Positions 3,935 to 56,274 of a DNA stretch of 64,000 nucleotides are shown here, piece by piece. The position numbers and the translations under genes are program-made. Positions within the stretch are counted from its first letter, which is position 1; each line of letters starts with the position of its first letter. The stretch comes from Candidatus Chisholmbacteria bacterium RIFCSPHIGHO2_01_FULL_52_32 (GTDB taxonomy: Bacteria; Patescibacteriota; Microgenomatia; UBA1400; Chisholmbacteraceae). The notes beneath the pieces were generated by a model. That model searched no databases, was not told the DNA's origin, and worked only from the letters and a program-made list of their open reading frames with translations. The stretch is from positions 82,100 through 146,099 of the forward strand of contig MHCJ01000003.1 in assembly GCA_001816585.1 (NCBI GenBank). Direction: 5' to 3'.

Positions 3935-5065
3935 CTATGATTTTTGTGCGGCGGAGATGTCCCTGAGGATACGCTGCGGTTCAATCAACGGGGTGACGTG
4001 GAGGCCTTGCTCTTCTTTAAGGAAAACGACCTGGGGATTATCTGAGACTTCTTGCTCGAGTTCGTAACTCCTGGTTAAGCGATCGTTCTTTCCAGCCCAT
4101 ATGACTATTTTTCCTCCCTCTTTTACTTTCATCTGCTGCCAAGACTTTGCTTTTCGACAGACCTTGTCTAACTGAGCGTTGAAGATGGCAGATTTGATTT
4201 TATCCTGATGGGGGAGGTCTGGTGTTTTTCTTCCCCAGACCAACGAATAAGCGGGTAATCTGCCGAGCATTCCGGAGAATCCGCCGATCTCGTAGGCCAG
4301 GCCGGCAGCGAGCTCCATTCTCGATTGATCGACTGAACTGGCTGGGGAGAACAGGACGGCTTGGCTGACACGCTTTTGAAACGCCTGGTCGTTGAGGATC
4401 TCGCTGACGATAGGACCTCCGGTTGAGTCAGCCCAAAGCTCAATTTCTCCTTCTGGTGCAACTTGCCTTAGAGCACATTTGAAGAATGTGACATGGGGTT
4501 CGTAGTTCGGAGATCGGGAGGCCTTGTCGGCAAATTCCGCGGTCGTCCTTCCCAGGCTTGATTCCGGATAGCCAATGACTACAACTTTTCTTCCCATGAA
4601 AGCTAACTCCTGCGCTAGGCCACCCACAGGATCGATATCGGCAGAGATGCTGGGGATGAGATAGATTGGCGGTTTTTTCTCCGTTTCTAGGGTGGTCTGT
4701 GACTCCGGAGGATCGAGGATGAGGAGGCGGCTTGTCTGTGGGCCCAAGTCGGGGAGATTGACGGTGATTTCACCCTGGTTGAGGTAGCGACGGGCAATCT
4801 CGTCGCGGATGTGGGCTTCGGCGATGATGCGCTTGCGACCGTCGGGGTCGGTTTTTGGCAGTTCATAATAGCGGCGGAGAAGATCGGCTCTCACGTTGCG
4901 GTTAAGCAATGAGCGGTTGATCTCTCTGGGCTCTCCGGGGATGCGGCTTGGGTGGGTGGCAGCTCTGACGAGATACCAGAGCCTGTCGAACCGTTCGAGG
5001 AGGTTTCTCTCCGGGACTTCGGTTTCTTGAATGGGTGGATGTAGTTCTCCGTGCGCTTCGTTCAT
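3935..5065 (-). CDS. Alpha/beta-hydrolase-fold protein (hypothetical)
   Basis: The ORF track gives 3935..5206, but its first 47 codons are the reverse translation of tRNA-Trp ('AGPPGFEPG'). The start was therefore moved to Met48 (codon 5063-5065). The body has hydrolase-like composition; function unknown. Confidence 0.5.
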   Translation of the reverse strand: MNEAHGELHPPIQETEVPERNLLERFDRLWYLVRAATHPSRIPGEPREINRSLLNRNVRADLLRRYYELPKTDPDGRKRIIAEAHIRDEIARRYLNQGEITVNLPDLGPQTSRLLILDPPESQTTLETEKKPPIYLIPSISADIDPVGGLAQELAFMGRKVVVIGYPESSLGRTTAEFADKASRSPNYEPHVTFFKCALRQVAPEGEIELWADSTGGPIVSEILNDQAFQKRVSQAVLFSPASSVDQSRMELAAGLAYEIGGFSGMLGRLPAYSLVWGRKTPDLPHQDKIKSAIFNAQLDKVCRKAKSWQQMKVKEGGKIVIWAGKNDRLTRSYELEQEVSDNPQVVFLKEEQGLHVTPLIEPQRILRDISAAQKS

Positions 5066-5112
5066 GGAGTTTTCTTGGACATAGTATACATCTTGGGGTA
5101 AAATACAGGCAG

Positions 5113-5184
5113 AGGGCCATGATGTTAACGGCAGCATGGCGGTCTCCAAAACCGCTCGTCCAGGTTCGAATCCTGGTGGCCCTG
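5113..5184 (+). tRNA. trnW: tRNA-Trp (anticodon CCA)
   Basis: 72-nt cloverleaf folded by hand. Acceptor stem AGGGCCA/TGGCCCT. D-stem ATGT/GCAT with loop TAACGGCA. Anticodon stem GCGGT/ACCGC with loop CTCCAAA (anticodon CCA). T-arm CCAGG-TTCGAAT-CCTGG. Discriminator G. CCA is not encoded. Confidence 0.85.
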
Positions 5185-5267
5185 CAATGACTAGGTCATG
5201 AAACATTTGAGACTCTCAGCAGTCTCATGCCAGCTGATTTCCATTGCATTCGCTATCGAGCTCCCAA

Positions 5268-5303
5268 ATACTCATGGAGCGTGTATCGTGCGCTCATGAG
5301 TAT
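5268..5303 (+). other. Perfect 13-bp-stem hairpin (ATACTCATGGAGCG-tgtatcgtg-CGCTCATGAGTAT) 84 nt downstream of tRNA-Trp
   Basis: Inverted repeat seen directly. It is followed by a second GC-rich imperfect stem at 5304-5340 and has no T-run. It may be a processing or termination structure, or part of a small RNA. Confidence 0.4.
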
Positions 5304-5368
5304 ACTGGAGACCTCGCTCGGGTTCGGAGCCTCCGAGAGCTGCAAAAAGCATCTTGATGGAGTAAAAT

Positions 5369-5632
5369 ATGGTTATGAAGAATTGGAATACTGACGTTTC
5401 TCGTTTCAAATCACCTCAGCATAAGCGCCTTTGGGAACTCTCTCAGCTTATCAATTATGGCCTCGAAGGGCGTAAACTCAACAAACGCGAACTTGCTATA
5501 AATTGGGCCGATTTGAAACCACTGCTCGATCCTGAACGGGCAAGAATGTTAGAATTTATCCTATGGAGAAAACTGTACTCACTCCCAACCAACGCGCGGT
5601 TCTGGAATCTCTCGCCCAAGAAAAATACATAA
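5369..5632 (+). CDS. Small ORF upstream of and overlapping the AbiEii-like gene (candidate cognate antitoxin, truncated AbiEi-like?)
   Basis: 87-aa ORF ending 70 nt inside the toxin gene in another frame. The assignment is purely positional; no recognisable domain. Confidence 0.3.
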   Translation: MVMKNWNTDVSRFKSPQHKRLWELSQLINYGLEGRKLNKRELAINWADLKPLLDPERARMLEFILWRKLYSLPTNARFWNLSPKKNT

Positions 5633-6225
5633 CCGAAACCTTCTTCTTGTCCGGAGGAACTGCCCTTTCTGCATTTTATTTTAAACACAGAATCTCCGAA
5701 GACTTCGATCTTTTTTCCGAAAAGGTATACGAAGCTAAAAAAGTTGCTATCTGGGTGCAAAAGGCCGCAAAAAATCTCAAGGTTCAGAAAGCTGAACAAC
5801 AAAAACTCACTGGTCAGGATGTCTATTACTTCTCTTTTGGCAAAAACGACTTTGTTAAAGTAGATTTCTCGTATTTTCCGTTTCCTCACCTGGGAGAATT
5901 TACGAAATATCAAAAGCTGAGGATTTCGAGCCTTGAAGACCTTGCCGTGAACAAACTTCAGGCTATAGTAACGAGAAAAAGATCTAGAGATTACGTAGAT
6001 TTATACCTGTGTTTACGAACTCTCAAATGGTCTTCAGAAGATATGCAGAAATACTACAGGCTCAAGTTCGATATGCACGTCAGTTTTGAGCAACTTGCTA
6101 CTTCGTTTACTAACGTTGTTGATGCACACGACGCGCCAAAATTCTTGGGAAAGACATCCTGGGAGGTCGTGAGAAAATATTTTCTTTCCTTAGCCCAGGA
6201 ATTAAAAAGCAAAATTATTGAATGA
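5563..6225 (+). CDS. AbiEii/DUF1814-family nucleotidyltransferase (type IV TA toxin-like)
   Basis: 220 aa. Motif '…FFLSGGTALSAFYFKHRISEDFDLF…' matches the GGTAL…HR.SEDxD signature of AbiEii/AbiGii nucleotidyltransferases. Confidence 0.65.
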   Translation: MEKTVLTPNQRAVLESLAQEKYITETFFLSGGTALSAFYFKHRISEDFDLFSEKVYEAKKVAIWVQKAAKNLKVQKAEQQKLTGQDVYYFSFGKNDFVKVDFSYFPFPHLGEFTKYQKLRISSLEDLAVNKLQAIVTRKRSRDYVDLYLCLRTLKWSSEDMQKYYRLKFDMHVSFEQLATSFTNVVDAHDAPKFLGKTSWEVVRKYFLSLAQELKSKIIE

Positions 6226-6248
6226 TCTTGAAAATTGTGATGTTCAGG

Positions 6249-6278
6249 TAGGTTCGAACGTCGTCCATCAGGTGCTGC
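6249..6278. repeat. 30-bp direct repeat, copy 1 (taggttcgaacgtcgtccatcaggtgctgc)
   Basis: Identical 30-mer at 6684-6713. The two copies bracket ORF 6307..6681 exactly. Confidence 0.7.
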
Positions 6279-6306
6279 TATATAGCCTAAGTGATATACT
6301 TAATTT

Positions 6307-6681
6307 GTGAAGAGAAAATACCTAATTTTCTTTATAGTTCTAATCGCCTTTTTCCTCTTACTAATATTTAGACAAGGGTACTATCCCTGGGAACATATAA
6401 GCTGTATTTTTTCCAGAGGAGACTACCAGGGATTAGCAGGTCCGCTTGGCTCTCCCCCGCTCGGATTTAAATGCGTCCACACTTTTAGCGATGCAGGTAA
6501 AAAATGCTTCAGCAACAATGATTGTCAGGGAAATTGTCTGGTCACCAAAGATACAATTGTAGAAAAAACTGGACTACTAAAGTCCAAGGTCACTGGTGGA
6601 TTTGGAGCCTGCGAGGCAAACGATTTAAGATACCCATCCTATCCAGGTGATTTTGAAAATCCTCAAGGCTGGATAATCTAA
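6307..6681 (+). CDS. Small secreted/membrane-anchored Cys-rich protein (hypothetical), low-GC cassette
   Basis: 124 aa with an N-terminal hydrophobic segment and six Cys in the mature part. AT-rich relative to surroundings. Flanked by perfect 30-bp direct repeats. Confidence 0.5.
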   Translation: MKRKYLIFFIVLIAFFLLLIFRQGYYPWEHISCIFSRGDYQGLAGPLGSPPLGFKCVHTFSDAGKKCFSNNDCQGNCLVTKDTIVEKTGLLKSKVTGGFGACEANDLRYPSYPGDFENPQGWII

Positions 6682-6683
6682 AA

Positions 6684-6713
6684 TAGGTTCGAACGTCGTC
6701 CATCAGGTGCTGC
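6684..6713. repeat. 30-bp direct repeat, copy 2
   Basis: Identical to 6249-6278. Confidence 0.7.
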
Positions 6714-7035
6714 AACAGTCTTCTGGGATGTAACCTCTATCCTTCGACTACGCTCCCTTCGGCATTGCTCAGGGCAAGAAAGACCGGTTGGGGTTCGACT
6801 TGTGGTGTGCTTGTTGAACCATTCCCTCCGGCCCTGCACTTCGACGCGATTCTCTCGCTCAGTGCGAGGGAGTCGATGCGAAGTATAGCGGAGGGATGAG
6901 AAGTTTACCCTAAGCGAAGTCGAATGGGATTCCCTCCGGCCCTGCAAGGTGCCATTCGATAACTATAACTGGATCTAGCCAGTTGATACGCTTTGACTTC
7001 TTGAAATCCCTCCATAGATAATTTATAGTCAGGTC

Positions 7036-7329
7036 ATGTTAACAAAGACAGATTTAAAAGAAATCAGAAAAATAATAAGGGAAGAGGTTGAAACTGAGTC
7101 TGAAAATAATAAAAGTGAAATTCAGGCAGAAATGAAAATGAACATGATAAGAGTTGTTACGGAAATAAGAGAATTAAGTTCTCGGCTTAAGAATGTAGAA
7201 GTGAAGTTAAACAAAATGCAGAAAGACCTGAAATATTCAGTAAATTTCCTTGACAAATTTGGCTTGAAAATCCAAAGTAGGGTTGAAAGAATCGAAGCAC
7301 ATCTTCGTCTAGAACCCATTTCTTCTTAA
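7036..7329 (+). CDS. Small coiled-coil protein (hypothetical)
   Basis: 97 aa, K/E-rich with heptad-like composition. AT-rich. Confidence 0.4.
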   Translation: MLTKTDLKEIRKIIREEVETESENNKSEIQAEMKMNMIRVVTEIRELSSRLKNVEVKLNKMQKDLKYSVNFLDKFGLKIQSRVERIEAHLRLEPISS

Positions 7330-7511
7330 GCCAGTTCCCTTCAAGATTTACTGACCCCTGCCCGTTTTCAATGATGCTTCCTTCAATCTTCCGATGTCTT
7401 GGCCAAATTACTCCAGGATTGTCTTGACGGAGCGCAATCCATTCCGAGGCTGTTTTTAAAAAAACCTATAGCGCTTGACACCTATTTTAGCTGTGGTACG
7501 CTTGACTAAGC

Positions 7512-7931
7512 ATGGTAGAAATGCCATCGGTTGAGACCGCTCCAAAAATGGTCGCCCAAGACAAGGCTGCAGAAGAGCCCCATTTGCATACCGAGTTCGG
7601 CGCCATCAGCCCGGATGATGTCGGTATTTACGGAAGAGTGATCGGCCGCCTTCGTCAGCAACCTGATGCTGAAGGGGTATCAATCCTTATCCTTTCAAAG
7701 GGGGAGCGGTCTTTTGAAGGAAAGGATCTTACGATCCCTGAAGGGAAACTTGGGCTCATTTTTCAGGAGAACAAACCAGGGGCAATTGATGCCCGATTTT
7801 TTGGGGCGCTGTCCAGGGCACTTCAACTGGAGAAGGATGTTGAGAGCCGGAGGTTTGCGAAAATTGATGAACTCGCGAAGGCAAAAAGTGCACATCCAGA
7901 GGGTAATAAACCGAAACGCATGGCTGCTTAG
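7512..7931 (+). CDS. Hypothetical protein
   Basis: 139-aa ORF with ordinary composition. Confidence 0.45.
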   Translation: MVEMPSVETAPKMVAQDKAAEEPHLHTEFGAISPDDVGIYGRVIGRLRQQPDAEGVSILILSKGERSFEGKDLTIPEGKLGLIFQENKPGAIDARFFGALSRALQLEKDVESRRFAKIDELAKAKSAHPEGNKPKRMAA

Positions 7932-8079
7932 TCCGCTTCTGTTCATGTAGTCGCTCGGGTTTCTATATCGGCTGATCCAGCCGTCTCGCAATCCAGAGAG
8001 CGTTTTAGGTTGGATACAAGCGGAATTTTTGGTGAATATAGTTGCCCTGCTGTGCTAGACTATAAGCCTAAAGGTTGTT

Positions 8080-35954: not shown

Positions 35955-37046
35955 ATGTTTAATAGGTTTTTCGGATTATTCAGTCACGATATTGGAATAG
36001 ACCTTGGGACCGCAAATACCCTGGTATTAGTGCGGGGGAAAGGGATTGTGGTGCGGGAGCCATCGGTTGTCGCGCGCCATAAGAAAACCGGTGCGGTGTT
36101 GGCGATCGGCACGGAGGCAAAATTGATGGTGGGAAAGACCCCGCAAGCCATTGAGGCCTTGCGTCCTTTACGTGACGGGGTGATAGCGGATTTTGATGCG
36201 GCGGAGGCGATGCTTTCTTACTATATCCGCTTGGTTCATGAGACGCACGGTATCATCCCAAAGATTCCCCGCCCGAGAGTTGTGGTCGGTATTCCCTCAG
36301 GAGTTACGGAGGTGGAGCGGCGGGCTGTGCAGGAGGTTTGTCTGTCTGCCGGAGCGCGGGAGGCGTATCTAATTGAAGAGCCGATGGCAGCCGCAATCGG
36401 GGCAGGGCTTCCGATTGAGGCGCCTCAGGGCCACTTCATCGTTGATATCGGAGGAGGGACGACCGAGATCGCAGTCATCTCTTTGGGAGGGATTGTTCTC
36501 AATCGTTCGATCCGGATCGCGGGAGATGAATTGGATGAGGCAGTCCAATCTTTCGTGCGGCTGAAGTTCGGACTCTTACTCGGCCTGCCGAGCGCCGAGG
36601 AAGTCAAGATTGCGGTTGGGAGTGCCTACCCGTTTGAGGAGCAGGATCGTGATGAGACGACACAAGCAAAGAAGCGGTCTTCGGGAACCCTTCAGATCGT
36701 GGTCCGGGGGCGGGATCTGGAGACGGGACTGCCGAAGTCTTTGAAGATCAATAGCTTTGAGGTTCGTGAGGCGCTCTCACCGGTCATCCGACAGATCATT
36801 GAAGAAATCAAGGATACGCTTGAGGAGACGCCTCCGGAGCTGATTGCAGATGTTTTAGAGCACGGGATCACTATGGCAGGGGGAAGCTCGCTCCTCCGTG
36901 GGATTGATCGCTTGGTTTCGGAGGATACAAAGATGCCGGTGTGGGTGGCGGATGATCCTCAAACGGCGGTTGTACGGGGGTGCGGGATGTTGCTTGAAGA
37001 TGCGCGCCTTTTGTCCAAAGTGCGGGTGAGAGGAGCCTTAAGATAG
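35955..37046 (+). CDS. mreB: Rod shape-determining protein MreB
   Basis: 'IGIDLGTANTLV' actin-fold phosphate-1 motif. Full-length MreB. Confidence 0.9.
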   Translation: MFNRFFGLFSHDIGIDLGTANTLVLVRGKGIVVREPSVVARHKKTGAVLAIGTEAKLMVGKTPQAIEALRPLRDGVIADFDAAEAMLSYYIRLVHETHGIIPKIPRPRVVVGIPSGVTEVERRAVQEVCLSAGAREAYLIEEPMAAAIGAGLPIEAPQGHFIVDIGGGTTEIAVISLGGIVLNRSIRIAGDELDEAVQSFVRLKFGLLLGLPSAEEVKIAVGSAYPFEEQDRDETTQAKKRSSGTLQIVVRGRDLETGLPKSLKINSFEVREALSPVIRQIIEEIKDTLEETPPELIADVLEHGITMAGGSSLLRGIDRLVSEDTKMPVWVADDPQTAVVRGCGMLLEDARLLSKVRVRGALR

Positions 37047-37150
37047 TTAAAAGTTTCAAGTTAAAAATTCAAAGTTACAGTTTAATATTCAACATTGAAA
37101 CACTATCACTCATTCTTCTCTAATGCCTTTAACTTTTCACTTTTGACTTT
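37040..37150. repeat. AT-rich palindromic repeat block (AAAGTT/AACTTT family)
   Basis: 'gttaaaagtttcaagttaaaaattcaaagttacag…ctttaacttttcacttttgactttgatctttacac'. Confidence 0.45.
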
Positions 37151-37185
37151 GATCTTTACACTTCTCTTCCTGTATACTGCTGTCG

Positions 37186-37761
37186 ATGAAAAGCCTTGCC
37201 CATCTGATTTCGAGAATCTTTGATCCGATGGTTGAAATCCCAATTCTTCTGGGGCTGGCGGTGTGGTTTGCGTACCTCAATGGTTTTGCCTGGAAGTTCC
37301 TCCTTGTTCTCATGCTCATCGATGCTGTCATCCCTTTCCTCTTCTTTCTCCATCTCTACAGAACCCGGGAGGTTCATGATTGGGACATCTCGCGAAGGTG
37401 GGAACGGATCCCTGTTTATGGGTTTACTCTCCTGGCACACCTTGGTGGTATCGGATTGGCAATCCTGACCGGACGGACCGAAGTTGCCCAGATCCTGTCG
37501 GTGTTTTGGTTACTTGGGATACTTTTCTTCGGGCTGACGTTCTTCTGGAAGGTGAGCGTTCATGCCGGTGTGAACGCGGCCATGGCGACGTTCTTAGTGC
37601 TTATGGTAGGAGTGCAGTTTTCATGGGTTTATGGTTTGCTCATACCGGTTGGTTGGGCCCGGATTTCCTTGGGGCATCACACGTTCACCCAATTTTCCGT
37701 CGGTGCGCTTCTGGCAAGCTTGAGCATGTGGCTCGGATTTCGTCTTTTTGGTCTCGTCTAA
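37186..37761 (+). CDS. PAP2-family (phosphatidic-acid-phosphatase-like) membrane protein
   Basis: 6 TM helices. 'KVSVHAG' and 'SLGHHTFTQFSVG' resemble PAP2 motifs 2 and 3. Confidence 0.5.
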   Translation: MKSLAHLISRIFDPMVEIPILLGLAVWFAYLNGFAWKFLLVLMLIDAVIPFLFFLHLYRTREVHDWDISRRWERIPVYGFTLLAHLGGIGLAILTGRTEVAQILSVFWLLGILFFGLTFFWKVSVHAGVNAAMATFLVLMVGVQFSWVYGLLIPVGWARISLGHHTFTQFSVGALLASLSMWLGFRLFGLV

Positions 37762-38566
37762 GAATCCAGTTTCGGGGGGAGAAGTGAGGAAAGGTTTTTC
37801 ATCTTCACTGATCTTGTTTCTGAGTTTGGTGTTCGCCTCCATTCTCCTTTTTCTGGTTGACCGTTCCGGATGGATCAGGGAAGTGCGGGGAGGATTTGAG
37901 CGCTTACTCCTTCCTGTTGAGGGAGCCGTGTATCGGACCTCTCAGGGCTTGGTGACTCCGTTACGGTTGTTGCGGTTCGCCCGAAGCGGGACGGCGCGGA
38001 TCGCAGATTTGGAACGGCAAGTTTCGGAGCTTGCCGTTGATGCTGTCCGCGTTTGGGATTTGGAGAGGGAGAACGAGGCGATGCGAAAGCTCCTCGGTTC
38101 ACCACTTCCTCCTCAATGGATCTACGTTCCTGCCCCAATTGTCGGCAGGGGTGACGAGTTGGCCTTAGGGGTGGGAGAAGTTGCAGGAATTGCGGGTGGC
38201 GAGGCGGTTGTCTGGCAAGACATGTTGTTCGGTACTGTTGCCACTGTTTCGAAGCGGCAAAGCAGCGTCCGTCTGCTTACGGACCCTGAGAGCCGTATTC
38301 CCGTGTTCGTTCCCCGAAGCAGGGTTGATGGATTGGTTGAAGGGCGCTTCGGTTCTCAGGTGGTGTTGACTCAGGTGCTTCAATCCGGAGATCTTATTGA
38401 GGATGATTTGGTCGTGACGAGCGGAGAATCCGGCATTCCCAGAGGTCTCGTCGTTGGGAAAGTGGGGGCCGTTATTTCTGATGAGACGGATGTCTATAAA
38501 GAGTTGCTGGTTGAGCCGATTGTTGATATCGGACTTATTGATACCGTGTTTGTGATAAAAGGGTAA
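37748..38566 (+). CDS. mreC: Rod shape-determining protein MreC
   Basis: N-terminal TM segment, coiled-coil, then a beta-rich C-terminus (…LVVTSGESGIPRGLVVGKV…). It sits between mreB and mreD. Confidence 0.7.
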   Translation: MVSSKNPVSGGEVRKGFSSSLILFLSLVFASILLFLVDRSGWIREVRGGFERLLLPVEGAVYRTSQGLVTPLRLLRFARSGTARIADLERQVSELAVDAVRVWDLERENEAMRKLLGSPLPPQWIYVPAPIVGRGDELALGVGEVAGIAGGEAVVWQDMLFGTVATVSKRQSSVRLLTDPESRIPVFVPRSRVDGLVEGRFGSQVVLTQVLQSGDLIEDDLVVTSGESGIPRGLVVGKVGAVISDETDVYKELLVEPIVDIGLIDTVFVIKG

Positions 38567-38594
38567 TGCAAGGGCAACCCATTCGGCAAGCTCA

Positions 38595-38690
38595 GGGCGA
38601 GAGTACAAAGTGAAAAGTTTCAGAGAAGAATAAAGAATATCATTCCCAATTTTGAACTTTTAATTTTTAACTTTTACCAAATCTGGGGTT
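38595..38690. repeat. AT-rich palindromic repeat block (AAAGTT/AACTTT family)
   Basis: 'caaagtgaaaagtttcag…ttttgaacttttaatttttaacttttacc'. Confidence 0.45.
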
Positions 38691-38696
38691 GATCAA

Positions 38697-39131
38697 ATGT
38701 CAATCTTTATTGTCGGTCTGACCGTCTTATTTTTGGCGATTTTAGGGAAGAGCGCATTCGGACTGTCCTTGGTTATGCCGCTGACTCTTGCAATAAGTTT
38801 TCAACTTGATGCACGGAAGAGCTTTTTTACCGCTTTTGTCGGCGGGCTTGTCCTCAGTTTGGTCGAGGGTTCTCCCTTGGGACGGGAGAGCCTGGCTTTG
38901 CTTTGTGCGGCTGGTTTCTTGCATGCCTACGGACGGCGGTTTTCCAGCAAGCACTGGTTTTTCTTTGTTGTATTTGCGGTTTTGGGGAGTCTTATCTACC
39001 TTGGGATTGCGGGGAGGCGGATCGGGTTTTGGGTGGTCGCTTCGGAGGCATTATTGGTTGTGATGTTCTTGTTTGCTGTGCGGGGGATCAGGGAACGCCT
39101 CTTTTCGGATGCCATCACACTTAAAGTATGA
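38697..39131 (+). CDS. mreD: Rod shape-determining protein MreD (putative)
   Basis: 144-aa polytopic membrane protein immediately after mreC. Its stop overlaps the mrdA start (ATGA). Confidence 0.55.
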   Translation: MSIFIVGLTVLFLAILGKSAFGLSLVMPLTLAISFQLDARKSFFTAFVGGLVLSLVEGSPLGRESLALLCAAGFLHAYGRRFSSKHWFFFVVFAVLGSLIYLGIAGRRIGFWVVASEALLVVMFLFAVRGIRERLFSDAITLKV

Positions 39132-40855
39132 AGACTTCTGTTTCCCTCGGACCATTGTTTGCGGATGAATTGCAAGGCAGAACTCTCAAGGAAGCAACGG
39201 AAGTATCTCCTGTCCGGCTTCGGTGGTTGGGGACGGCTCTGGTTATTATTTTCGGAGCCTTTTTTCTTCGTTTGGTTTGGCTCCAAGTTGTCAAAGGACA
39301 GGAGAACCGGATCCTTTCTGAGGAGAATCGGATTCTCGCGCGCCGGATTCCCGCTCCAAGGGGGTTAATTCAGGATAGAAACGGAGAGATTTTGGTGCAG
39401 AACATCCCCGTTTATCGGAAGCGGAACCCTGCATGCCCTCGTCTGAATGGAGAAGCAGCTTCCGAAGACTGCACGGAATTTTTGGGAATTTCCAGAGAGG
39501 AGGCGCTTCAGCTTGAGGTTTCGGGGAGGGGGAGCGAGGTGGTGACCCTGGTCGGTCGTACCTACCCTTTAGGTGCTTCGGTTTCTCATCTTACCGGATA
39601 CGTTGGCGAGGTTACCCGTGAGGAACTCTCCCTTCATTCCGAATACTCCTTGGGAGATTTGATCGGAAAGACGGGTGTTGAGCGGACGTACGATGGACTG
39701 CTTCACGGGAGGGATGGAGCTGAGCTCGTGGAAGTCGATGTTCGGAATCAGGTTGTCCGTGAGGTTTCGCAAAAAAAACCGGTTTCCGGAACGGACCTCG
39801 AACTCACCATTGATCGGAGGCTTCAGCTGAAAGCCTTTGAAGCGATTTCGGATCGGAAAGGGGCACTGGTTGCGCTTGACCCGAGAAACGGAGAGGTACT
39901 GGCTTTGATCTCTTCTCCCAGTTTCGATCCGAATAATGTCGCCATCAGTTTGGATCGCCAGGATGAGCCATTCTTCTTTCGGGCTATCGGAGGGGCTTAC
40001 CCTCCGGGTTCTGTGTTTAAGGTGGTGACGGCGTCCGCAGGTCTTGAGGAAGGCAAGATTGACGCGCAAAGTGAGTTTGAGGATACCGGGGAGATCCGGG
40101 TCGGCCTTTTCCGGTACGGTAACTGGTATTTTGACCAATACGGTCGGAAGGAAGGATTTCTTAATATTGTTCAGGCGATCAAGCGTTCCAACGATATCTT
40201 CTTTTATAAAGTCGGGCAGCTTGTGGGGCCGACGCGACTTTCGGAATGGGCGAAGGTGTACGGATTCGGCAGGCTTTCTGGCATTGATTTACCGGGCGAA
40301 GCGGAAGGATTGGTTCCGTCTCCTTTGTGGAAGGAGCGGGAGCGGGGGGAACGCTGGTTTCTGGGAAACACCTATCATTTTGCCATCGGGCAAGCGGATC
40401 TTGAGACAACGCCCTTGCAGGTGTCGCAAATGACTGCTGTCGTTGCCAGCGGTGGCAGGTTGTGCCGGCCGCATGTGTTGTTTCGGGAAGGATCAGAGGA
40501 GACTTCAGACGACGGGCTTTGTCAAGAGCTCAATATTGCGGATGAGACGATCCGCTTGGTCTCGGAAGGGATGGTTGAGGCCTGCCGACCGGGCGGGACC
40601 GGATTTCCATTCTTCAACTTTGGGGTTACCAAGGATGGGGAGTTTCGGCAGATTGAAGTCGGATGTAAGACGGGCACAGCGGAGTATGGGGATTCGGAGG
40701 GACGTACCCATGCATGGTTTACCGTATTCGCTCCGGCGGAGGCACCGCGGATTGTGGTGACGGTGCTTTTGGAGGGGGCGGGGGAGGGATCGTATCAAGC
40801 GGCTCCGGTGGCGAAGGAGTTCCTTTCGTACTATTTTTCGGAAGTATCCGAATAA
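39128..40855 (+). CDS. mrdA: Penicillin-binding protein 2 (elongasome transpeptidase)
   Basis: N-terminal TM segment and a transpeptidase with 'GSVFK' (SxxK). It follows mreBCD. Confidence 0.85.
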   Translation: MKTSVSLGPLFADELQGRTLKEATEVSPVRLRWLGTALVIIFGAFFLRLVWLQVVKGQENRILSEENRILARRIPAPRGLIQDRNGEILVQNIPVYRKRNPACPRLNGEAASEDCTEFLGISREEALQLEVSGRGSEVVTLVGRTYPLGASVSHLTGYVGEVTREELSLHSEYSLGDLIGKTGVERTYDGLLHGRDGAELVEVDVRNQVVREVSQKKPVSGTDLELTIDRRLQLKAFEAISDRKGALVALDPRNGEVLALISSPSFDPNNVAISLDRQDEPFFFRAIGGAYPPGSVFKVVTASAGLEEGKIDAQSEFEDTGEIRVGLFRYGNWYFDQYGRKEGFLNIVQAIKRSNDIFFYKVGQLVGPTRLSEWAKVYGFGRLSGIDLPGEAEGLVPSPLWKERERGERWFLGNTYHFAIGQADLETTPLQVSQMTAVVASGGRLCRPHVLFREGSEETSDDGLCQELNIADETIRLVSEGMVEACRPGGTGFPFFNFGVTKDGEFRQIEVGCKTGTAEYGDSEGRTHAWFTVFAPAEAPRIVVTVLLEGAGEGSYQAAPVAKEFLSYYFSEVSE

Positions 40856-48588: not shown

Positions 48589-48658
48589 AACCTCTTTATG
48601 TTATCACGTTCTCCGAATCGTGATGTTTCCAGGCCGGCAGCCTTCTCACCGTAGCGTC

Positions 48659-48693
48659 AAGAGGTCGGACCTCTGCACAAAGGTCCGACCTCT
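48659..48693. promoter_or_regulatory. Tandem palindromic boxes AAGAGGTCGGACCTCT-n6-AGGTCCGACCTCT ~125 nt upstream of nrdJ (candidate operator)
   Basis: Palindromes read directly. A near-identical tandem pair is at 56238-56274. Confidence 0.35.
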
Positions 48694-48820: not shown

Positions 48821-51034
48821 ATGGCTTTATGGCAGGTTCGTAAACGAAGTGGGGAGCCTGAGGATTTCGATCCGGCAAAGATCACCCGGTCAATCGTCAT
48901 GGCGCAGTCCAATGTAGGGGTTACCGATGCCGAAACCGCCAAGCGGATCGCGAAGATGGCGGTTTCCGATCTTTCCGATCGGCTGGCGTCGGAGCGGGTG
49001 ATCGGGACGGATGAGATCGGGGATACGGTTGAGCGGATCCTGATTGACGAATCCCTCTATGTGATCGCCCGCGCCTATATCATTGCCCGCGAACGCAGGC
49101 GGCAGGAGCGGAAGGCGGAGAAGCAGTTAGGCGTGGTGGATGATGTCGGCCTGCCATACAATTCGGTCGTTGTCATTCGCAACAAGTACCTTCGCAAAGA
49201 CGACAACGGGCACCCGGTTGAGACGCCAAAACAGATGTTTCTGAGGGTGGCGCAGGCGCTGGCTCGGGCGGAATCTTCGAGAAAAGGGTTGTATGAAAAG
49301 CGGTTTTTCGATGTCATGGTTTCTCTGCGGTTTTTGCCCGGCGGGCGGACGCTTGCCAACGCGGGGACGGTCAATAATCAACTCGCCAATTGCTTTGTTC
49401 TGCCCATGCCGGATTCGGTTGAAGGGTTTTTTGAGGTGGTCAAGGCAAGCTCTATCCTCAAGAAGAACGGCGGCGCGGTCGGGTTTAACTTCGGAAAGAT
49501 CAGGCCAAAAGGGGACATTGTCGCCAGGACGAGCGGGAGGGCGTGCGGGCCGGTGGCTCTCATGAAGATCGTGAATGATGCTTCGGATATTTTGCTTCAG
49601 GCAGGCGGTCGACGGAGCGGGAATATGGTCATTTTGCCGGTATCCCATCCTGACATTTTGGAGTTTATCACCTGTAAGGAGGATGAAACGCTTCTTCCCC
49701 ACATCAACTATTCCCTGGGTGTGACGGGGAAGTTCATGGAGGCGGCGGCGAAGGATCGCAGTTGGAACCTTATCAATCCGAGGAATGGCGAGGTTGTCAA
49801 CACGGTTTCGGCGCGGTCAATCCTTGAGCTTGCCTGTTCCATGGCATGGAGAAATGGGGATCCCGGCTTGGTTTTCTTGGATCGGATCAATGTGGATAAC
49901 CCAACGCCCCAAGTGGGCGTGCTTGAGGCGGTGAACCTCTGCGGGGAGCAACCACTCCTTCCATGGGAGGCGTGCAATTTGGGCAGTATCAATTTGGCAG
50001 CGCACCTTATGGGGAACGGGAAACGGACCGTCGATTGGGAGCGTCTTTCCGAGTCGGTTCGTCTCGGTATCCGCATGCTTGATGATGTCGTGACAGTGTG
50101 CGGCTATCCTCTGCGGAAGATCCAAGAGGTGGTTCGCAGCAACCGGAAGATCGGGCTTGGGGTGATGGGATGGGCGGATGTTTTGGTACGCTTGGGGATA
50201 CCCTACACCAGCGAAGAGGCATTGCGGCTGGCCCACCGGACGATGAAATTTATTCGGGAAACTGCGGAAGATGAGAGCCAGAGGCTGGGGAGAGAGAAAG
50301 GGAGTTTTCCCAATTTCAGAGGTTCGGTTTGGGAGAAACGGGGTTTCAAGCATTTTCGGAATGCGACCTTGCTTACCATCGCTCCGACGGGGTCGATCAG
50401 CATGGCGGCCGGCGTCTCGTACGGGATTGAGCCTTTGTTTGCCCTGGCTTTTTATAAAGAGGCGATGGGAGGGGTACAGCTTCCTGAAGTTAACAGCGAC
50501 CTCATGGAGGCGCTCCGGAATGCCGGTGTCGAGGAGAACGGGCTCTTGGATGAGGTGGCGCAAACCGGAACGATCCAGCACCTTACTAAGATTCCCGAGA
50601 GGATCCGCAGAGTGTTTGTGACCGCCCACGATCTCTCGATCCGCGACCATGTCTTTATGCAGGCTGCGTTTCAGAAGTATACCGACAACGCGGTTTCGAA
50701 AACGATCAATCTCCCGCATACCGCCCGGGTTGAGGATGTGGAAGCTGCCTTCGTGCTAGCCTGGAAGACCGGGTGCAAAGGGATCACGGTTTACAGAGAT
50801 GCGAGCCGAAAGGTGCAGGTCCTGCACGTCGGGAAATATTCAATAGACACAAGACACAAGACACAAGACACAAGACAGGGGAAAAAAGATGTCCCCGTGC
50901 AGGCTAAGAAGCTGCAAGCGAGTAAGCTACTAAGCTCCTCTTCCCTCGAGTGTCCGCAGTGCGGGGCGATGATGCAGATGGCGGAGGGGTGTGCTACTTG
51001 CCCTTCTTGCGCGTTTTCGGTCTGCAGTCTATAG
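48821..51034 (+). CDS. nrdJ: Class II (adenosylcobalamin-dependent) ribonucleotide reductase NrdJ with N-terminal ATP-cone and C-terminal Zn-ribbon
   Basis: ATP-cone '…QVRKRSGEPEDFDPAKITRSI…'. Class II core '…NLCGEQPLLPWEACNLGSINL…'. C-terminus 'CPQCG…CATCPSC'. Start trimmed to Met at 48821. Carries an in-frame (ACACAAG)x5 repeat at about 50846-50877. Confidence 0.85.
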   Translation: MALWQVRKRSGEPEDFDPAKITRSIVMAQSNVGVTDAETAKRIAKMAVSDLSDRLASERVIGTDEIGDTVERILIDESLYVIARAYIIARERRRQERKAEKQLGVVDDVGLPYNSVVVIRNKYLRKDDNGHPVETPKQMFLRVAQALARAESSRKGLYEKRFFDVMVSLRFLPGGRTLANAGTVNNQLANCFVLPMPDSVEGFFEVVKASSILKKNGGAVGFNFGKIRPKGDIVARTSGRACGPVALMKIVNDASDILLQAGGRRSGNMVILPVSHPDILEFITCKEDETLLPHINYSLGVTGKFMEAAAKDRSWNLINPRNGEVVNTVSARSILELACSMAWRNGDPGLVFLDRINVDNPTPQVGVLEAVNLCGEQPLLPWEACNLGSINLAAHLMGNGKRTVDWERLSESVRLGIRMLDDVVTVCGYPLRKIQEVVRSNRKIGLGVMGWADVLVRLGIPYTSEEALRLAHRTMKFIRETAEDESQRLGREKGSFPNFRGSVWEKRGFKHFRNATLLTIAPTGSISMAAGVSYGIEPLFALAFYKEAMGGVQLPEVNSDLMEALRNAGVEENGLLDEVAQTGTIQHLTKIPERIRRVFVTAHDLSIRDHVFMQAAFQKYTDNAVSKTINLPHTARVEDVEAAFVLAWKTGCKGITVYRDASRKVQVLHVGKYSIDTRHKTQDTRQGKKDVPVQAKKLQASKLLSSSSLECPQCGAMMQMAEGCATCPSCAFSVCSL
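50980..51017. repeat. Direct repeat A (last codons of nrdJ); 35/38 identical to 52643-52680
   Basis: A reads gcggaggggtgtgctacttgcccttcttgcgcgttttc. B reads gcggagaggtgtgctacttgcccctcctgcgcgttttc. In the nrdJ frame both continue to encode …CATCPSCAFS(V/A)CSL and end in a stop codon. Confidence 0.7.
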
Positions 51035-51133
51035 ACCTTTTTGGGCGGTTCTTCTTCTTGAGAGATGGGTGCAATTCCAAAATTCTTATTTCCCATCGTC
51101 TTTGATCATATATCCCTTTTACGGCAAATAAAC

Positions 51134-51161
51134 TTGACAAATTGAAAAAGCACGTTATACT
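51134..51161 (+). promoter_or_regulatory. Sigma70-like promoter TTGACA-16-TATACT inside the insert
   Basis: Read directly. Followed by hairpin CCTCAAA-taac-TTTGAGG and the ATG at 51238. Confidence 0.45.
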
Positions 51162-51237: not shown

Positions 51238-51999
51238 ATGAATATGAATAAGACGAGCCGAAAAATGAAAATATTGAGTCTTTTTTCAGAAATTCTTATC
51301 ACCATTGTGGTCCTATCGGGAACCGTCGTTTTGGTCGCACCGGCGATAGTTTCCGAGGTGGTCGACGGAAGCATCTCAGTATTGGCATGGGCCGACGACG
51401 ACAAGGATGACGGGGAGGAAGCTGATGATGAAGATGAGCGAGGACGCAAAGATCGGGACGACGATCAGGATGGTGAGGATGATGAGGACAATGAGGATAA
51501 TGATGGGGATGATGAAGATCAGGGGAGAGACGATGACGAAGACGACGATGAGGATAATGATAATGATGATGACGATGACAGGGATGATCGGGATCACAAA
51601 GTTGATGTCTGTCATGTTTCCCCAGGAAATCCGGCGAACGCCCATGTTGTGCGGGTCGATGCCCATGCTTGGAATCGGGGTCACAGTCCGCATAACGCAG
51701 GTAATCCGGGACACTCCCTTGACTTTCTAATGGGTTCTGGTGACAGTTGTCCACGATCGGTTGGGGGTCCCGCACCCACTCCTGGTGGACAGGGAGGTTC
51801 TTCTAGCCAATCCAGTTCGAGTTCTAGCTCAAGTTCTAGTTCAACGAGTGAATCGAGCTCGCCATCGACCGGGCAGGTTCTGGGGGCGGCTACATCTCAA
51901 TTGGCGGCAACGGGTGATGGTGTCCTTGATTTAGTGGTTCGGTTTTTGGGAGCCTTACTTTCGGGGGGCGGGATTCTCGTTTGGAGAAGGAGTCGCTAG
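51238..51999 (+). CDS. Sortase substrate: signal-anchored, extremely acidic (Asp/Glu-rich) low-complexity protein with C-terminal LAATG sorting signal
   Basis: N-terminal hydrophobic segment. A ~90-aa D/E tract and a Ser-rich tract. C-terminus 'LAATGDGVLDLVVRFLGALLSGGGILVWRRSR' is an LAxTG motif plus hydrophobic stretch plus basic tail. Confidence 0.65.
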   Translation: MNMNKTSRKMKILSLFSEILITIVVLSGTVVLVAPAIVSEVVDGSISVLAWADDDKDDGEEADDEDERGRKDRDDDQDGEDDEDNEDNDGDDEDQGRDDDEDDDEDNDNDDDDDRDDRDHKVDVCHVSPGNPANAHVVRVDAHAWNRGHSPHNAGNPGHSLDFLMGSGDSCPRSVGGPAPTPGGQGGSSSQSSSSSSSSSSSTSESSSPSTGQVLGAATSQLAATGDGVLDLVVRFLGALLSGGGILVWRRSR

Positions 52000-52590
52000 A
52001 TGCGAAGGATCGTCCGATTCCTTGCAGTTCTTTCGGTTTTGGGCGGAGCGTTCCTTTTGGCTCTGCCTTATTTTTGGAGTTCGCATAGGTCAGAAAGCGA
52101 GAGATCGCTTGAGAAGGATCAAGCTGTGATTGCGAAATCGCGAGTCGAACGCGAACCAGATGAATTGCCTTTACGGGTTCGGGTTAACAAGGTTTCAGTC
52201 GATCTGCCGGTCAAGTCGGCGACGGTTTCAGAGAACGACTGGGGACTTTATGTTGATGCGGTTTCGTACCTTAAGACGAGTGGAAAGCCTGGAAAAAAGG
52301 GAAATTTGGTGCTCTATGGGCATAATACCAATCGACTTTTAGGTCCATTGCGTTGGGCAGGGGTGGGAGATAGGGTTTTTCTTGAGACTGAAAGCCGGTT
52401 ATTGAGCTATCGAATTGTCGAGAAAAAAATCGTTCCTCCGACTCAGCTTGATATCGTTTTTCCAACGAATGATGAGCGACTTACACTGTTTACGTGCACC
52501 AACTTCAACGACGCTGACCGCTTGGTTCTTGTGGCACAGCGAAGTGCGACGTTTGGAGATTTGCTAAGCTCCGACATTTTAAGTGAGTAA
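52000..52590 (+). CDS. srt: Sortase (transpeptidase; LAxTG-type, class E-like)
   Basis: 'LVLYGHN' (catalytic His), 'LTLFTCT' (TLxTC Cys) and a downstream Arg. N-terminal membrane anchor. Its start abuts the substrate gene's stop. Confidence 0.8.
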   Translation: MRRIVRFLAVLSVLGGAFLLALPYFWSSHRSESERSLEKDQAVIAKSRVEREPDELPLRVRVNKVSVDLPVKSATVSENDWGLYVDAVSYLKTSGKPGKKGNLVLYGHNTNRLLGPLRWAGVGDRVFLETESRLLSYRIVEKKIVPPTQLDIVFPTNDERLTLFTCTNFNDADRLVLVAQRSATFGDLLSSDILSE

Positions 52591-52642
52591 CTTTACGTGT
52601 CTCCTTCCGGTTTCAATCTAGCTTGCTCCAAAGCCAGACTTG

Positions 52643-52680
52643 GCGGAGAGGTGTGCTACTTGCCCCTCCTGCGCGTTTTC
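52643..52680. repeat. Direct repeat B (duplicated nrdJ 3' terminus)
   Basis: See repeat A. An in-frame stop lies just upstream (tag at 52619-52621), so only the last ~24 codons are present. Confidence 0.7.
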
Positions 52681-52707
52681 CGCGTGTTCCTTGTGAAACC
52701 TCCCGGC

Positions 52708-54599: not shown

Positions 54600-56192
54600 T
54601 TGTGTGCTACGTTCTTTCAGATGAGTCTTCGGGTGCGCGGGTGGCCGATCTATTATAAAGATATCCTTCGGGTGAAAGACCCTGATCATCATGTGGGGGT
54701 TTGTTCGTTATGGACGGAGCGGCAGGTGGTTGAGAAGCTCGTCTCGGGCACGCGATACAACCTCATCGGCAACCTCTACAGTGCGCAAGGGATCAATGCG
54801 ATGATCCGAAACATCTTTGCTAACCCTTCGATCCGTACGGTTGTGTTATGGGGAGCGGAGATGAGTTTGTCGGGGCATTCGCTGTTGATGCTGATGAAGG
54901 AGGGAGTGGATGAGGCAAGGCGGATCAAAAACGGGCGAGGGGAGATTGAGGAGGAGATTCCGCTTCCTGTCGTTGACCAGTTCCGAAAGGTGGTTGAGGT
55001 GGTTGATCTGCGGGGAAGGGATCGGGATTTCCTCGTTGCCACACTTCGGCAGTTGGATAAAGTAAAGAAGCCGCCATTTGCACGAAAGCCAAAACTCTTT
55101 CCTAAATCGGAACCGAAGACTACGATGTTTCCGAGCGAGAGTGTTGGGTTTCGGGTATCCGGAACAAAGGTCGCCAAGACGTGGCTTAAGCTTCTCAATG
55201 AGATCTACAAATATGGAAAACCCAAGCATACGCGTTACAGCAGGGATAACTCGATTCGTGAGATTTTGAATCTGACGGCGGTTGTCACCGATGAGGACCC
55301 CGAGAAGATTTATTTTCCCTCTTACCTTCCGTTTTCCGAGACCGAACTTATCGCGTACTATGCTGAACTGTTGACGGACCGGCAGATTCCGGGAGTCGCC
55401 TACAACTATGGGAGAAGACTGCGCAGGGAGCTGGGGGTGGATCAGATTGCCAAGATGAAGGAGCTTGTTAAAAAGCGGCCGGCATCCAAAAAAATGGCAG
55501 CCTTCACCGCGGACGTGAAGAAGGATTGGGGAGCGGTGCATAAGGGTGACACGCCGTGTTTGACACAAATATTAGGAAGCATCTTCGAAAAACGGTTTTA
55601 CATGACTGCCCATTTTCGGAGCCAAGACATGGTGCACGGTTGGCCGCGGAATGCCTTTGCCCTTCGGAAACTGCAAAAAGAAATTGCGGATGCTACCGGC
55701 TATAGAATGGGACCGCTGACGGTTATTACCCACAGTGCGCACATCTACGGAGATGACTTTTTGCTGGTTGAAAATCTTCTCATGGATCATTACGAGAAAG
55801 AATTGGGCTTCTCGCCGGCCGTTCATTTTACCTTTGATCCGCGCGGCAATGTGGTGATTGAAATTGTGAGTATGAAAGAAGCGCTGCAATTTCATGAATA
55901 CTCCAAACGTTATGAAAAGGGGGCAGTTCCTTTTGCCGTTTCACAGACGCTGAAGCGGCTGCCCAAGCGGGGGAGAAATTCCGGCAAGCTCATCCGGGCG
56001 ACGCTGTTTGCTCCGGACGGCGGCGCACCTCTCAAAATATTTGAAGGAAGAACAGCACAGGAAGTGGCATATCAAATTGCCGATTGGGGATATCTTTCGG
56101 ATCCCGCGCACGCGATGTATGTCGGCCAGGAACTGCAGCGGGCGGAAGAGGCGATTGTTCGTGGCGGGAGGTATCACCAGGATCCGGCGTGA
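54600..56192 (+). CDS. Thymidylate-synthase-family (ThyA/dUMP- or dCMP-hydroxymethylase-like) enzyme with ~150-aa N-terminal and ~110-aa C-terminal extensions
   Basis: Central ~270 aa align by eye to ThyA: 'TRYSRDNS' ~ DRTGTGT; 'YNYGRRLR' ~ YG.QWR; 'GDTPCLTQI' ~ LAPCH (catalytic Cys); 'HFRSQDMVHGWPRNAFAL' ~ YQRSCDVFLGLPFNIASY (Arg-Ser…Asp and Asn retained); 'HSAHIYGDD' ~ THLYSNH. The flanking extensions have no recognisable motif. The start may be Met at 54621. Confidence 0.7.
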   Translation: MCATFFQMSLRVRGWPIYYKDILRVKDPDHHVGVCSLWTERQVVEKLVSGTRYNLIGNLYSAQGINAMIRNIFANPSIRTVVLWGAEMSLSGHSLLMLMKEGVDEARRIKNGRGEIEEEIPLPVVDQFRKVVEVVDLRGRDRDFLVATLRQLDKVKKPPFARKPKLFPKSEPKTTMFPSESVGFRVSGTKVAKTWLKLLNEIYKYGKPKHTRYSRDNSIREILNLTAVVTDEDPEKIYFPSYLPFSETELIAYYAELLTDRQIPGVAYNYGRRLRRELGVDQIAKMKELVKKRPASKKMAAFTADVKKDWGAVHKGDTPCLTQILGSIFEKRFYMTAHFRSQDMVHGWPRNAFALRKLQKEIADATGYRMGPLTVITHSAHIYGDDFLLVENLLMDHYEKELGFSPAVHFTFDPRGNVVIEIVSMKEALQFHEYSKRYEKGAVPFAVSQTLKRLPKRGRNSGKLIRATLFAPDGGAPLKIFEGRTAQEVAYQIADWGYLSDPAHAMYVGQELQRAEEAIVRGGRYHQDPA

Positions 56193-56237
56193 AGGAGAAG
56201 TAAGGAGCAGGGAAGTTGTCGAAAGGTCGACGGCGTC

Positions 56238-56274
56238 GAGAGGTCGGACCTCTAAACACAGAGGCCCAACCTCT
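56238..56274. promoter_or_regulatory. Tandem palindromic boxes GAGAGGTCGGACCTCT-n6-AGAGGCCCAACCTCT (second site of the same motif as 48659-48693)
   Basis: Read directly. It lies between the TS-like gene and the downstream kinase/HAD/tmk genes. Confidence 0.35.

Follow-up and report, generated by a model that had tools for sequence, protein, structure and literature searches.

We analyzed a window of 64,000 nucleotides, positions 82,100 to 146,099 of contig MHCJ01000003.1 from Candidatus Chisholmbacteria bacterium RIFCSPHIGHO2_01_FULL_52_32, in which a sortase gene directly follows the gene for its putative substrate. The substrate open reading frame (ORF; 51238-51999, plus strand) encodes 253 aa and the sortase ORF (52000-52590, plus strand) 196 aa, and the sortase ATG sits on the base right after the substrate stop codon TAG. 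Both lie where a sequence-only reading of this DNA had placed them, on the plus strand with the sortase directly downstream of the substrate, and they form a real two-gene unit that is translationally coupled. The sortase fold and catalytic residues are evident in the downstream protein, and both the pairing and the sorting signal at the end of the upstream protein are conserved in related loci.

The downstream protein matches PF04203 (9.7e-18; 64.6 bits against a cutoff of 26.6) and TIGR01076 (41 bits against 39.35). The motifs LYGHN and TLFTC, from which the sequence-only reading had recognized a sortase, are present and supply the catalytic His108 (nt 52321-52323) and Cys166 (52495-52497), to which Arg174 (52519-52521) can be added as the third catalytic residue. 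The enzyme has an N-terminal membrane helix and no C-terminal membrane anchor. An AlphaFold2 (AF2) model with a pLDDT of 76.9, rising to about 80-95 in the catalytic core, is predicted to adopt the eight-stranded sortase beta-barrel; when this model was searched with Foldseek, 127 PDB matches were obtained at E<=1e-3, and the 50 best are all sortases, with many solved sortases matched at E-values of about 1e-11. Across 27-28 homologues of the same clade, W81, S94, N102, Y106, H108, N109, T165, C166, D171 and R174 are invariant, which yields the clade signature W81, S94, N102, Y-G-H108-N-T, T-C166, D171, R174.

Conservation of the pairing was assessed in 28 related loci, four of them reached through sortase homologues (P0002-P0005) and 24 through a pattern scan of GTDB, one genome per GTDB species. 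At all 28 loci, the gene directly upstream of the homologous sortase, on the same strand, ends in xAxT[GS] followed by a hydrophobic segment and a K/R tail; for P0002-P0005, the upstream substrates end in LAATG or LAQTG (three) and LAPTS (one). All 26 substrates that were scored have Ala at P3 and Thr at P1; at P4, 15 have L, seven Y and four F, and at P1', 23 have G and three S. In 24 of these 26, a (Q/E)VLG box is found no more than 14 residues upstream of the motif, with 0, 3, 4 or 5 residues before P4, so that the shared signal reads (Q/E)VLG-x0-5-[LYF]-A-x-T-[GS] plus a hydrophobic segment and a basic tail; in the related loci, the sorting motif is followed by 26-39 aa that end in K/R. 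When 27 substrates were aligned at full length, only A223 and T225 (window numbering) proved invariant, and V214, L215 and G216 were more than 90% conserved. The cargo domains, by contrast, vary among loci and include fn3, Big_1, DUF11, CARDB and collagen. As the cargo differs and the signal and adjacency are kept, conservation resides in the signal and not in the passenger, which is the pattern predicted by a dedicated enzyme-substrate relationship.

Several further observations concern this relationship. The start of the sortase gene overlaps the 3' end of the substrate gene by 1-47 nt in 21 of 27 loci, and the tripartite layout typical of wall sorting (pentapeptide, hydrophobic segment, basic C-terminal tail) is found in the window protein and at the 28 loci. 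No other C-terminus resembling a sorting signal emerged from a strict six-frame screen of the 64-kb window. The window also carries mreB, mreC and a gene for a PBP2-type transpeptidase at 35955-40855, about 11-15 kb upstream of the pair, and the presence of these genes implies that the organism makes peptidoglycan, the acceptor that a sortase needs. The proposal of a cognate sortase-substrate pair in the sequence-only reading thus holds up, on the strength of conserved synteny with an xAxTG-type signal at 28 of 28 loci, translational coupling, an invariant catalytic triad and peptidoglycan genes nearby. By record title, 14 of the 24 GTDB loci belong to Patescibacteria (Woesebacteria, Gottesmanbacteria, Pacebacteria, Microgenomatus, Paceibacterota).

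In the window protein, the signal comprises QVLG (213-216), five residues, LAATG (222-226; nt 51901-51915), a hydrophobic, Gly-containing stretch of 23 residues (227-249) and RRSR (250-253), with predicted cleavage between T225 and G226; candidate substrate peptides for the sortase are QVLGAATSQLAATGDG and QVLGAATSQLAATGDGV. The LAATG motif, hydrophobic stretch and RRSR tail of the sequence-only reading are therefore all in place at aa 222-253, and so is its serine tract, at aa 176-212; Ser makes up 40% of aa 176-225, and the Ser-rich linker (aa 176-212) would serve as a wall-spanning stalk, by analogy with other proteins anchored to the wall. At the other end, the protein starts with MNMNKTSRKMK, a basic n-region with K5, R8, K9 and K11, and next comes a hydrophobic stretch, about 26 aa long; two AxA motifs, A34-P-A36 and A50-W-A52, are candidate cleavage sites as read from the sequence. 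Other gene callers use the alternative start M10 (51265), which gives a 244-aa product (P0006). C125 and C171 are the only cysteines of the whole substrate. Used as the query in a word-index search for homologues, the entire substrate retrieved only the same protein and one deletion variant. Matches to Pfam, NCBIfam and PHROG models (CDC45, EbpS, a siphovirus capsid protein) fell far below cutoff, EbpS for instance reaching 18 bits against a cutoff of 300, and were rejected as compositional artefacts of the Asp/Glu tract. In three related substrates (L007 3207-3668, L008 2718-3842, L014 2842-3513), the segment PGDG(R/L)SDGRSDGRSSCP(E/S)CTA(P/A)P was observed directly before the QVLG box.

Both cysteines of the substrate fall in a Cys/His module (aa 121-175) with the pattern KV.VCH..(G)NP....GH..H ... 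CP and six His residues, a divergent short form of a recurrent module whose full version reads KVTICH(A/S/R)T.S..NPY...GH..H.GP...WGDIIPP. The module recurs in the substrates of five related loci (L001, L008, L010, L018, L023), and a profile built from the window segment and 36 database proteins (with P0008-P0190 among the module relatives) matched 5,681 cluster representatives (E<=1e-3), of which 2,393 still match at E<=1e-10. Up to six copies occur per protein, and some of the module proteins end in LADTG or LPTTG signals. No Pfam model covers the module in ten top matches, and no NCBIfam model covers it in seven top matches and three substrates from the Candidate Phyla Radiation (CPR); none of the strings WGDIIPP, GDIIPP and ICHRTNS, taken from its motifs, turned up in the searchable literature. 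The module is a large uncharacterized extracellular domain family, often found on sortase substrates. An AF2 model of the module, made from 37 sequences, has a pLDDT of 57.5, and only a predicted beta-hairpin, KVDVCHV / AHVVRVD, reaches about 80. In 25 of 28 substrates the last Cys stands 10-51 residues before the sorting motif (P4), often as (D/N)CP, and this placement of the cysteines appears compatible with an extracytoplasmic disulfide.

The most conspicuous part of the substrate is its polyanionic tract (aa 53-120), which the sequence-only reading had described as about 90 residues of almost pure Asp/Glu. The tract is in fact 68 aa long with 47 D/E (69%) and eight K/R, for a net charge of -39; its best 60-aa stretch holds 42 D/E, against no more than 22 in the other window ORFs of at least 100 aa. 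It is encoded by imperfect GAT/GAC/GAG repeats with a 9-nt period, 14 copies of which are in register. Among the sequences retrieved, the database variant P0007 carries a 40-aa in-frame deletion between DDED repeats, and one ENA scaffold (L032 3256-4000) a 17-nt frame-breaking deletion within the tract; these length variants could be real slippage or an assembly collapse of the repeat. The full-length gene is identical in eight of the nine retrieved contigs that span all of it. Elsewhere, the extreme acidic tract is absent: the other substrates contain no more than 20 D/E in any 40 aa, and those of the nearest relatives have only short acidic/Ser linkers, which puts the tract outside the conserved system. 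It is a lineage-specific feature produced by expansion of a codon repeat, and since it is repeat-encoded, varies in length and is missing from homologues, the expansion looks recent.

Taken together, the locus very probably encodes a bicistronic cassette in which a membrane-anchored sortase attaches its dedicated substrate to the cell wall. The substrate would be exported through the Sec pathway by its N-terminal signal and kept in the membrane by its hydrophobic C-terminal segment and RRSR tail. The sortase, tethered by its N-terminal transmembrane helix with His108, Cys166 and Arg174 on the extracytoplasmic side, would then cleave LAATG between Thr225 and Gly226 and pass Thr225, via a thioacyl intermediate, to an amine of a peptidoglycan precursor. 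The wall-linked product, of about 170-190 aa, would display a Ser/Gly/Pro stalk, the module with two Cys and six His, and, outermost, the free 68-aa polyanionic tip. Our leading guess for this tip, though a doubtful one, is a disordered, strongly hydrated, cation-attracting brush; the sequence-only reading had proposed cation binding or adhesion, which are putative roles of the polyanion.

With respect to classification, the enzyme belongs to a Patescibacteria clade outside the curated sortase classes. It passes only the generic NCBIfam sortase model and fails the class models alike, scoring 35.8 bits for class E (NF033747; cutoff 160), 35.3 for class D (cutoff 165), 32.7 for class C (cutoff 160) and 30.8 for class GN (TIGR03784; cutoff 158). 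No class model gives a good score for any of the 27 clade members, the lowest E-value being 8.5e-15, for class D; the class E model reaches 1.2e-11 at best over the 26 clade members that match it. A clade profile built from 27 sortases and run on solved enzymes gave its highest score for the class D enzyme CpSrtD of Clostridium perfringens (4d70; 71 bits, E=7.9e-19), with an alignment that spans the whole catalytic domain with small gaps, followed by B. anthracis SrtA (57.6 bits), class C enzymes (about 52), T. fusca SrtE (37.6) and S. coelicolor SrtE1 (23.6). CpSrtD, the best solved relative, is also similar in size and loop lengths. Foldseek placed classes C, D, A and E alike at a TM of about 0.57 and so does not separate them. 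The substrate signal, with Ala at P3 and Gly at P1', is not the LPxTA-type signal of class D; CpSrtD itself prefers LPQTGS and leaves LAETG unprocessed (PMC5148588), whereas the substrates of this clade all have P3 Ala.

A P3 Ala points instead to class E, for which LAxTG is the preferred substrate motif (PMC5148588), and the sequence-only reading had drawn this link from LAATG. Apart from the motif itself, this link failed on the class E model, the clade profile, the tyrosine position and the beta6/beta7 insertion. Kattke et al. ascribe recognition of P3 Ala to a tyrosine in the beta3/beta4 loop, Y229 in SrtE1, with F92 as its counterpart in CpSrtD (PMC5148588). Alignments with T. fusca SrtE begin after this loop, and the position was located through the CpSrtD alignment instead. 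There, the hidden Markov model (HMM) alignment sets the clade residues A-S-Y90-L91 over I-G-H-F of CpSrtD, so that the class E Tyr column corresponds, in this sequence alignment, to Leu91 (L in 21, V in four and W in three of 28), and Y90 (Y in 15, H in 10) falls on the preceding conserved His. The class E insertion of about 21 aa between beta6 and beta7 is absent as well, His108 and Cys166 being 58 aa apart with gaps of no more than 3 aa relative to 5hu4 (class A) and 4d70 (class D). Leu91 and the missing insertion imply that the clade reads P3 Ala by other means. A class E housekeeping sortase of the actinobacterial kind, with LAATG as an expression of class E specificity, is accordingly a very improbable identity for this enzyme, even if the best PDB sequence matches of a central 81-aa query are to Thermobifida fusca class E (weakly, at 24 bits and E=3.7e-4): the class E score is about level with those for classes D and C, and the clade profile favors CpSrtD over both SrtE enzymes. 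Just as hard to credit is a pilus system, in which a class-C-like sortase would polymerize the upstream protein into a covalent fibre. The top Foldseek matches are indeed class C (GBS SrtC1, E=1.5e-11), and pilus islands typically have their sortase and substrate genes side by side, but the Foldseek classes are near equal and the class C model falls far short of its cutoff. Moreover, each locus has one substrate gene, no YPK pilin motif occurs in 27 substrates (that of L015 left out), cleavage at A52 would leave only three Lys (K56, K71 and K121), Pfam finds no Ig-like or CnaB domain in the window protein, and the sortase does not have the C-terminal membrane anchor.

Two further alternatives accept the pair and differ on what becomes of the substrate. 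The sortase might process it without attachment to peptidoglycan, by releasing it or by transferring it elsewhere, for example to an S-layer or a glycolipid; knowledge of the CPR envelope is poor, the enzyme stands outside the characterized classes, and no acceptor can be deduced from sequence. We nevertheless consider this improbable, given that the tripartite signal is the canonical architecture of wall sorting, that genes for peptidoglycan elongation are present in the window, and that characterized sortases of this fold are all transpeptidases (PMC5148588). The other alternative concerns the acidic tract alone, which may have no specific ligand-binding role and be a slippage-made, length-variable, low-complexity spacer tolerated by selection. 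The imperfect 9-nt periodicity, the in-frame deletion variant and the absence of the tract from homologous substrates all fit such a spacer; conversely, the reading frame is preserved over 68 codons, the gene is identical in nearly all contigs that cover it, and a displayed protein with a net charge of -39 at its distal end probably feels some physical effect of it. On this evidence a spacer is possible, if somewhat against expectation. As for wall attachment by a dedicated sortase, which we still prefer, several points weigh against it. The curated NCBIfam LPXTG-anchor model gave no match at E<=0.01 to the window protein or the other 26 substrates. The N-terminal signal is of unusual length and may stay uncleaved. 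Cleavage site, acceptor and surface exposure are extrapolated from the sortase family, and the one-enzyme, one-substrate relationship is deduced from adjacency. Finally, nine of the 24 GTDB loci (L005, L007, L008, L009, L015, L017, L020, L027 and L028) carry Gammaproteobacteria/Pseudomonadales titles, at odds with a clade of Patescibacteria; because the sortase of one of them (L028) is 85% identical to that of a Woesebacteria metagenome-assembled genome (L025), these titles are suspected to be placeholders or mislabels.

The cassette also bears the mark of its arrival. The gene upstream of it encodes a class II ribonucleotide reductase (RNR), identified by Pfam matches, and a 40-nt direct repeat, 93% identical between its copies at 50979-51018 and 52641-52680, exactly flanks the substrate and sortase genes. 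Each copy belongs to an RNR 3' end (Table 1); over the last 18 codons plus stop, the two are identical at 42 of 57 nt and 16 of 18 aa, and their last 17 nt differ mostly synonymously. That a duplicated RNR 3' end brackets the cassette implies that the cassette was inserted at some point. The simplest reading of this arrangement is that a fragment comprising an RNR 3' end, the substrate gene and the sortase gene, from a related genome, recombined into the resident RNR gene; one crossover would have been homologous, inside RNR, and the other an illegitimate join at a point 57 nt short of the resident stop codon.

The sequence-only reading had envisaged a mobile insert, and of this proposal the insertion is upheld by the duplicated RNR 3' end, whereas mobility finds no such support. 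The repeats enclose the two genes alone and no mobility gene such as an integrase or a transposase, PHROG models matched none of ten neighbouring ORFs, and the flanks are housekeeping genes. No empty site was seen either: in look-ups with the sortase and with the downstream 257-aa gene (10 representative places each, from 23 and 24 contigs read, similar ones collapsed), the contigs share one gene order among the places listed. An exact-pattern metagenome scan for the repeat core returned 0 matches, and no relatives of the 257-aa protein turned up when metagenomes were scanned with it. The cassette was thus acquired by insertion and is not an autonomous mobile element.

Table 1. Features of the substrate-sortase cassette and its flanks (window positions).
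Feature	Position	Strand	Basis or remark
Functional RNR 3' end, left copy, MAEGCATCPSCAFSVCSL and stop	50978..51034	+	direct repeat, translation
Terminator-like hairpin	51019-51037		overlaps RNR 3' end
Promoter-like TTGACA-16 nt-TATACT	51134..51161	+	consensus scan only; 11/12 consensus positions
Export signal or signal anchor, aa 1-52	51238..51393	+	sequence
Polyanionic tract, aa 53-120	51394..51597	+	composition, repeat analysis
Cys/His module, divergent short form, aa 121-175	51598..51762	+	module alignments
Gly/Pro then Ser-rich linker, aa 176-212	51763..51873	+	composition
Sorting signal, aa 213-253 and stop	51874..51999	+	sequence, substrate alignments
Shine-Dalgarno-like GGAGAAGGAG for sortase	inside substrate sorting-signal segment, just upstream of sortase	+	sequence
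Sortase, 196 aa	52000..52590	+	Pfam, NCBIfam, AF2/Foldseek, homologue alignment
Relic RNR 3' end, right copy, LAERCATCPSCAFSACSL and stop, no gene body upstream	52640..52696	+	direct repeat, translation

The promoter-like site of Table 1 lies 77 nt 5' of the substrate start codon. The neighbours of the cassette, apart from hypothetical proteins, are housekeeping genes, namely a GDSL lipase, the class II RNR, a ThyA-like fusion, topoisomerase I and DprA. The region is identical to contig MHCM01000003.1 of GCA_001816955.1, and the sortase has an exact counterpart (100% identity) in Candidatus Chisholmbacteria RIFCSPLOWO2_01_FULL (CPR/Microgenomates). In the annotation of GCA_001816955.1 the 253-aa substrate gene is not called, and a 105-aa ORF on the opposite strand within the acidic repeat is called instead (L030 3377-3694, minus strand); the JGI/ENA gene callers give the substrate product as 244 aa or 253 aa. 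Within the window, three further ORFs over the acidic tract (51299-51775, minus; 51376-51714, minus; 51407-51730, plus) were discounted as repeat shadows.

Some features of the wider neighbourhood were recorded in passing. A 29-nt repeat that contains the palindrome AGAGGTCGGACCTCT occurs at 48654-48682 and 56233-56261 (86% identical), one copy preceding the RNR gene and the other following the ThyA-like gene, and may be a regulatory or REP-like element shared by these two deoxynucleotide-synthesis genes. The ThyA-like gene itself (54600-56192, plus strand) encodes a 530-aa protein of unusual ThyA architecture, in which an MtrA-like N-terminal domain is fused to a methanogen-type thymidylate synthase core (114 bits on TIGR03283, where the cutoff is 174.55) and a C-terminal PterinBD-DUF4346 domain. 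Further away, the 3 kb at 5000-8000, right after tRNA-Trp (5113-5185), the only tRNA gene in the window, have a GC content of about 0.44 compared with about 0.52 elsewhere, and as a candidate integrated element this region is more conventional than the sortase locus.

Among characterized systems, the closest in signal is that of the class E enzymes SrtE1 and SrtE2 of S. coelicolor with the chaplins ChpA-C, which shares the P3 Ala pentapeptide, the N-terminal membrane anchor of the enzyme, the His-Cys-Arg triad and the logic of wall anchoring (PMC5148588). The window enzyme differs from class E in falling under the class E HMM cutoff, in the low score of its clade profile on SrtE1, and in having Leu at the Tyr position and no long beta6/beta7 insertion; the present signal allows Y or F at P4 and has the upstream (Q/E)VLG box, and the clade's enzyme is always encoded beside a single substrate, in CPR hosts here and in Actinobacteria there. 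Single-target cassettes, such as SrtB-IsdC and the class GN 'marine' sortase (TIGR03784), likewise combine one sortase with one adjacent substrate, a variant signal and conserved pairing, but they involve another sortase clade, another signal and another host phylum, and the cargo domains here are highly variable. With regard to the cargo of the window, the Ser-Asp-repeat MSCRAMMs of staphylococci (ClfA/B, SdrC-E) are also sortase-anchored and contain a long, repeat-encoded, length-variable, strongly acidic region of low complexity, in their case a wall-proximal stalk below the folded, ligand-binding A domain. In the window substrate, by contrast, the acidic tract consists of D/E without Ser and lies distally, toward the N-terminus, whereas a Ser-rich segment of its own makes up the stalk. 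The two share no sequence homology, and the only match, to the unrelated staphylococcal surface protein EbpS, is compositional.

The sortase family is present in more than half of CPR genomes and is nearly ubiquitous in Microgenomates (PMC6744442), and in the searchable literature on CPR sortases we found no description of the anchored cargo, the signal read or the gene pairing. The mechanism proposed here is an ordinary one, in a poorly described CPR sortase clade with an extended sorting signal that is apparently undescribed. We tentatively suggest, as a plausible though by no means assured generalization, that Patescibacteria, at least Microgenomates and Paceibacteria, possess a sortase clade outside classes A-F that is strict for P3 Ala without the class E determinants, reads an extended (Q/E)VLG-x0-5-[LYF]AxT[GS] signal, and is almost always encoded in a coupled one-substrate cassette whose cargo is interchangeable and which, as the duplicated RNR 3' end suggests, can be moved between genomes by recombination. 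To judge by the aligned sequences, the clade would represent a second, independent solution to the recognition of P3 Ala.

The locus and its 28 relatives provide a testable rule, namely that the gene directly upstream of such a sortase is its substrate and carries the signal VLG...[LYF]AxTG. Within this scheme the polyanionic cargo is a curiosity. The compact enzyme of about 130 aa, similar to classes D and A and apparently requiring P3 Ala, is a candidate orthogonal ligation tool, and if the generalization is true, the clade would offer orthogonal xAxTG sortases of natural origin and a way to get at the surface proteins of CPR bacteria that are uncultured. Applied across genomes, the rule could list the surface proteins displayed by these uncultured, host-dependent, ultra-small bacteria.

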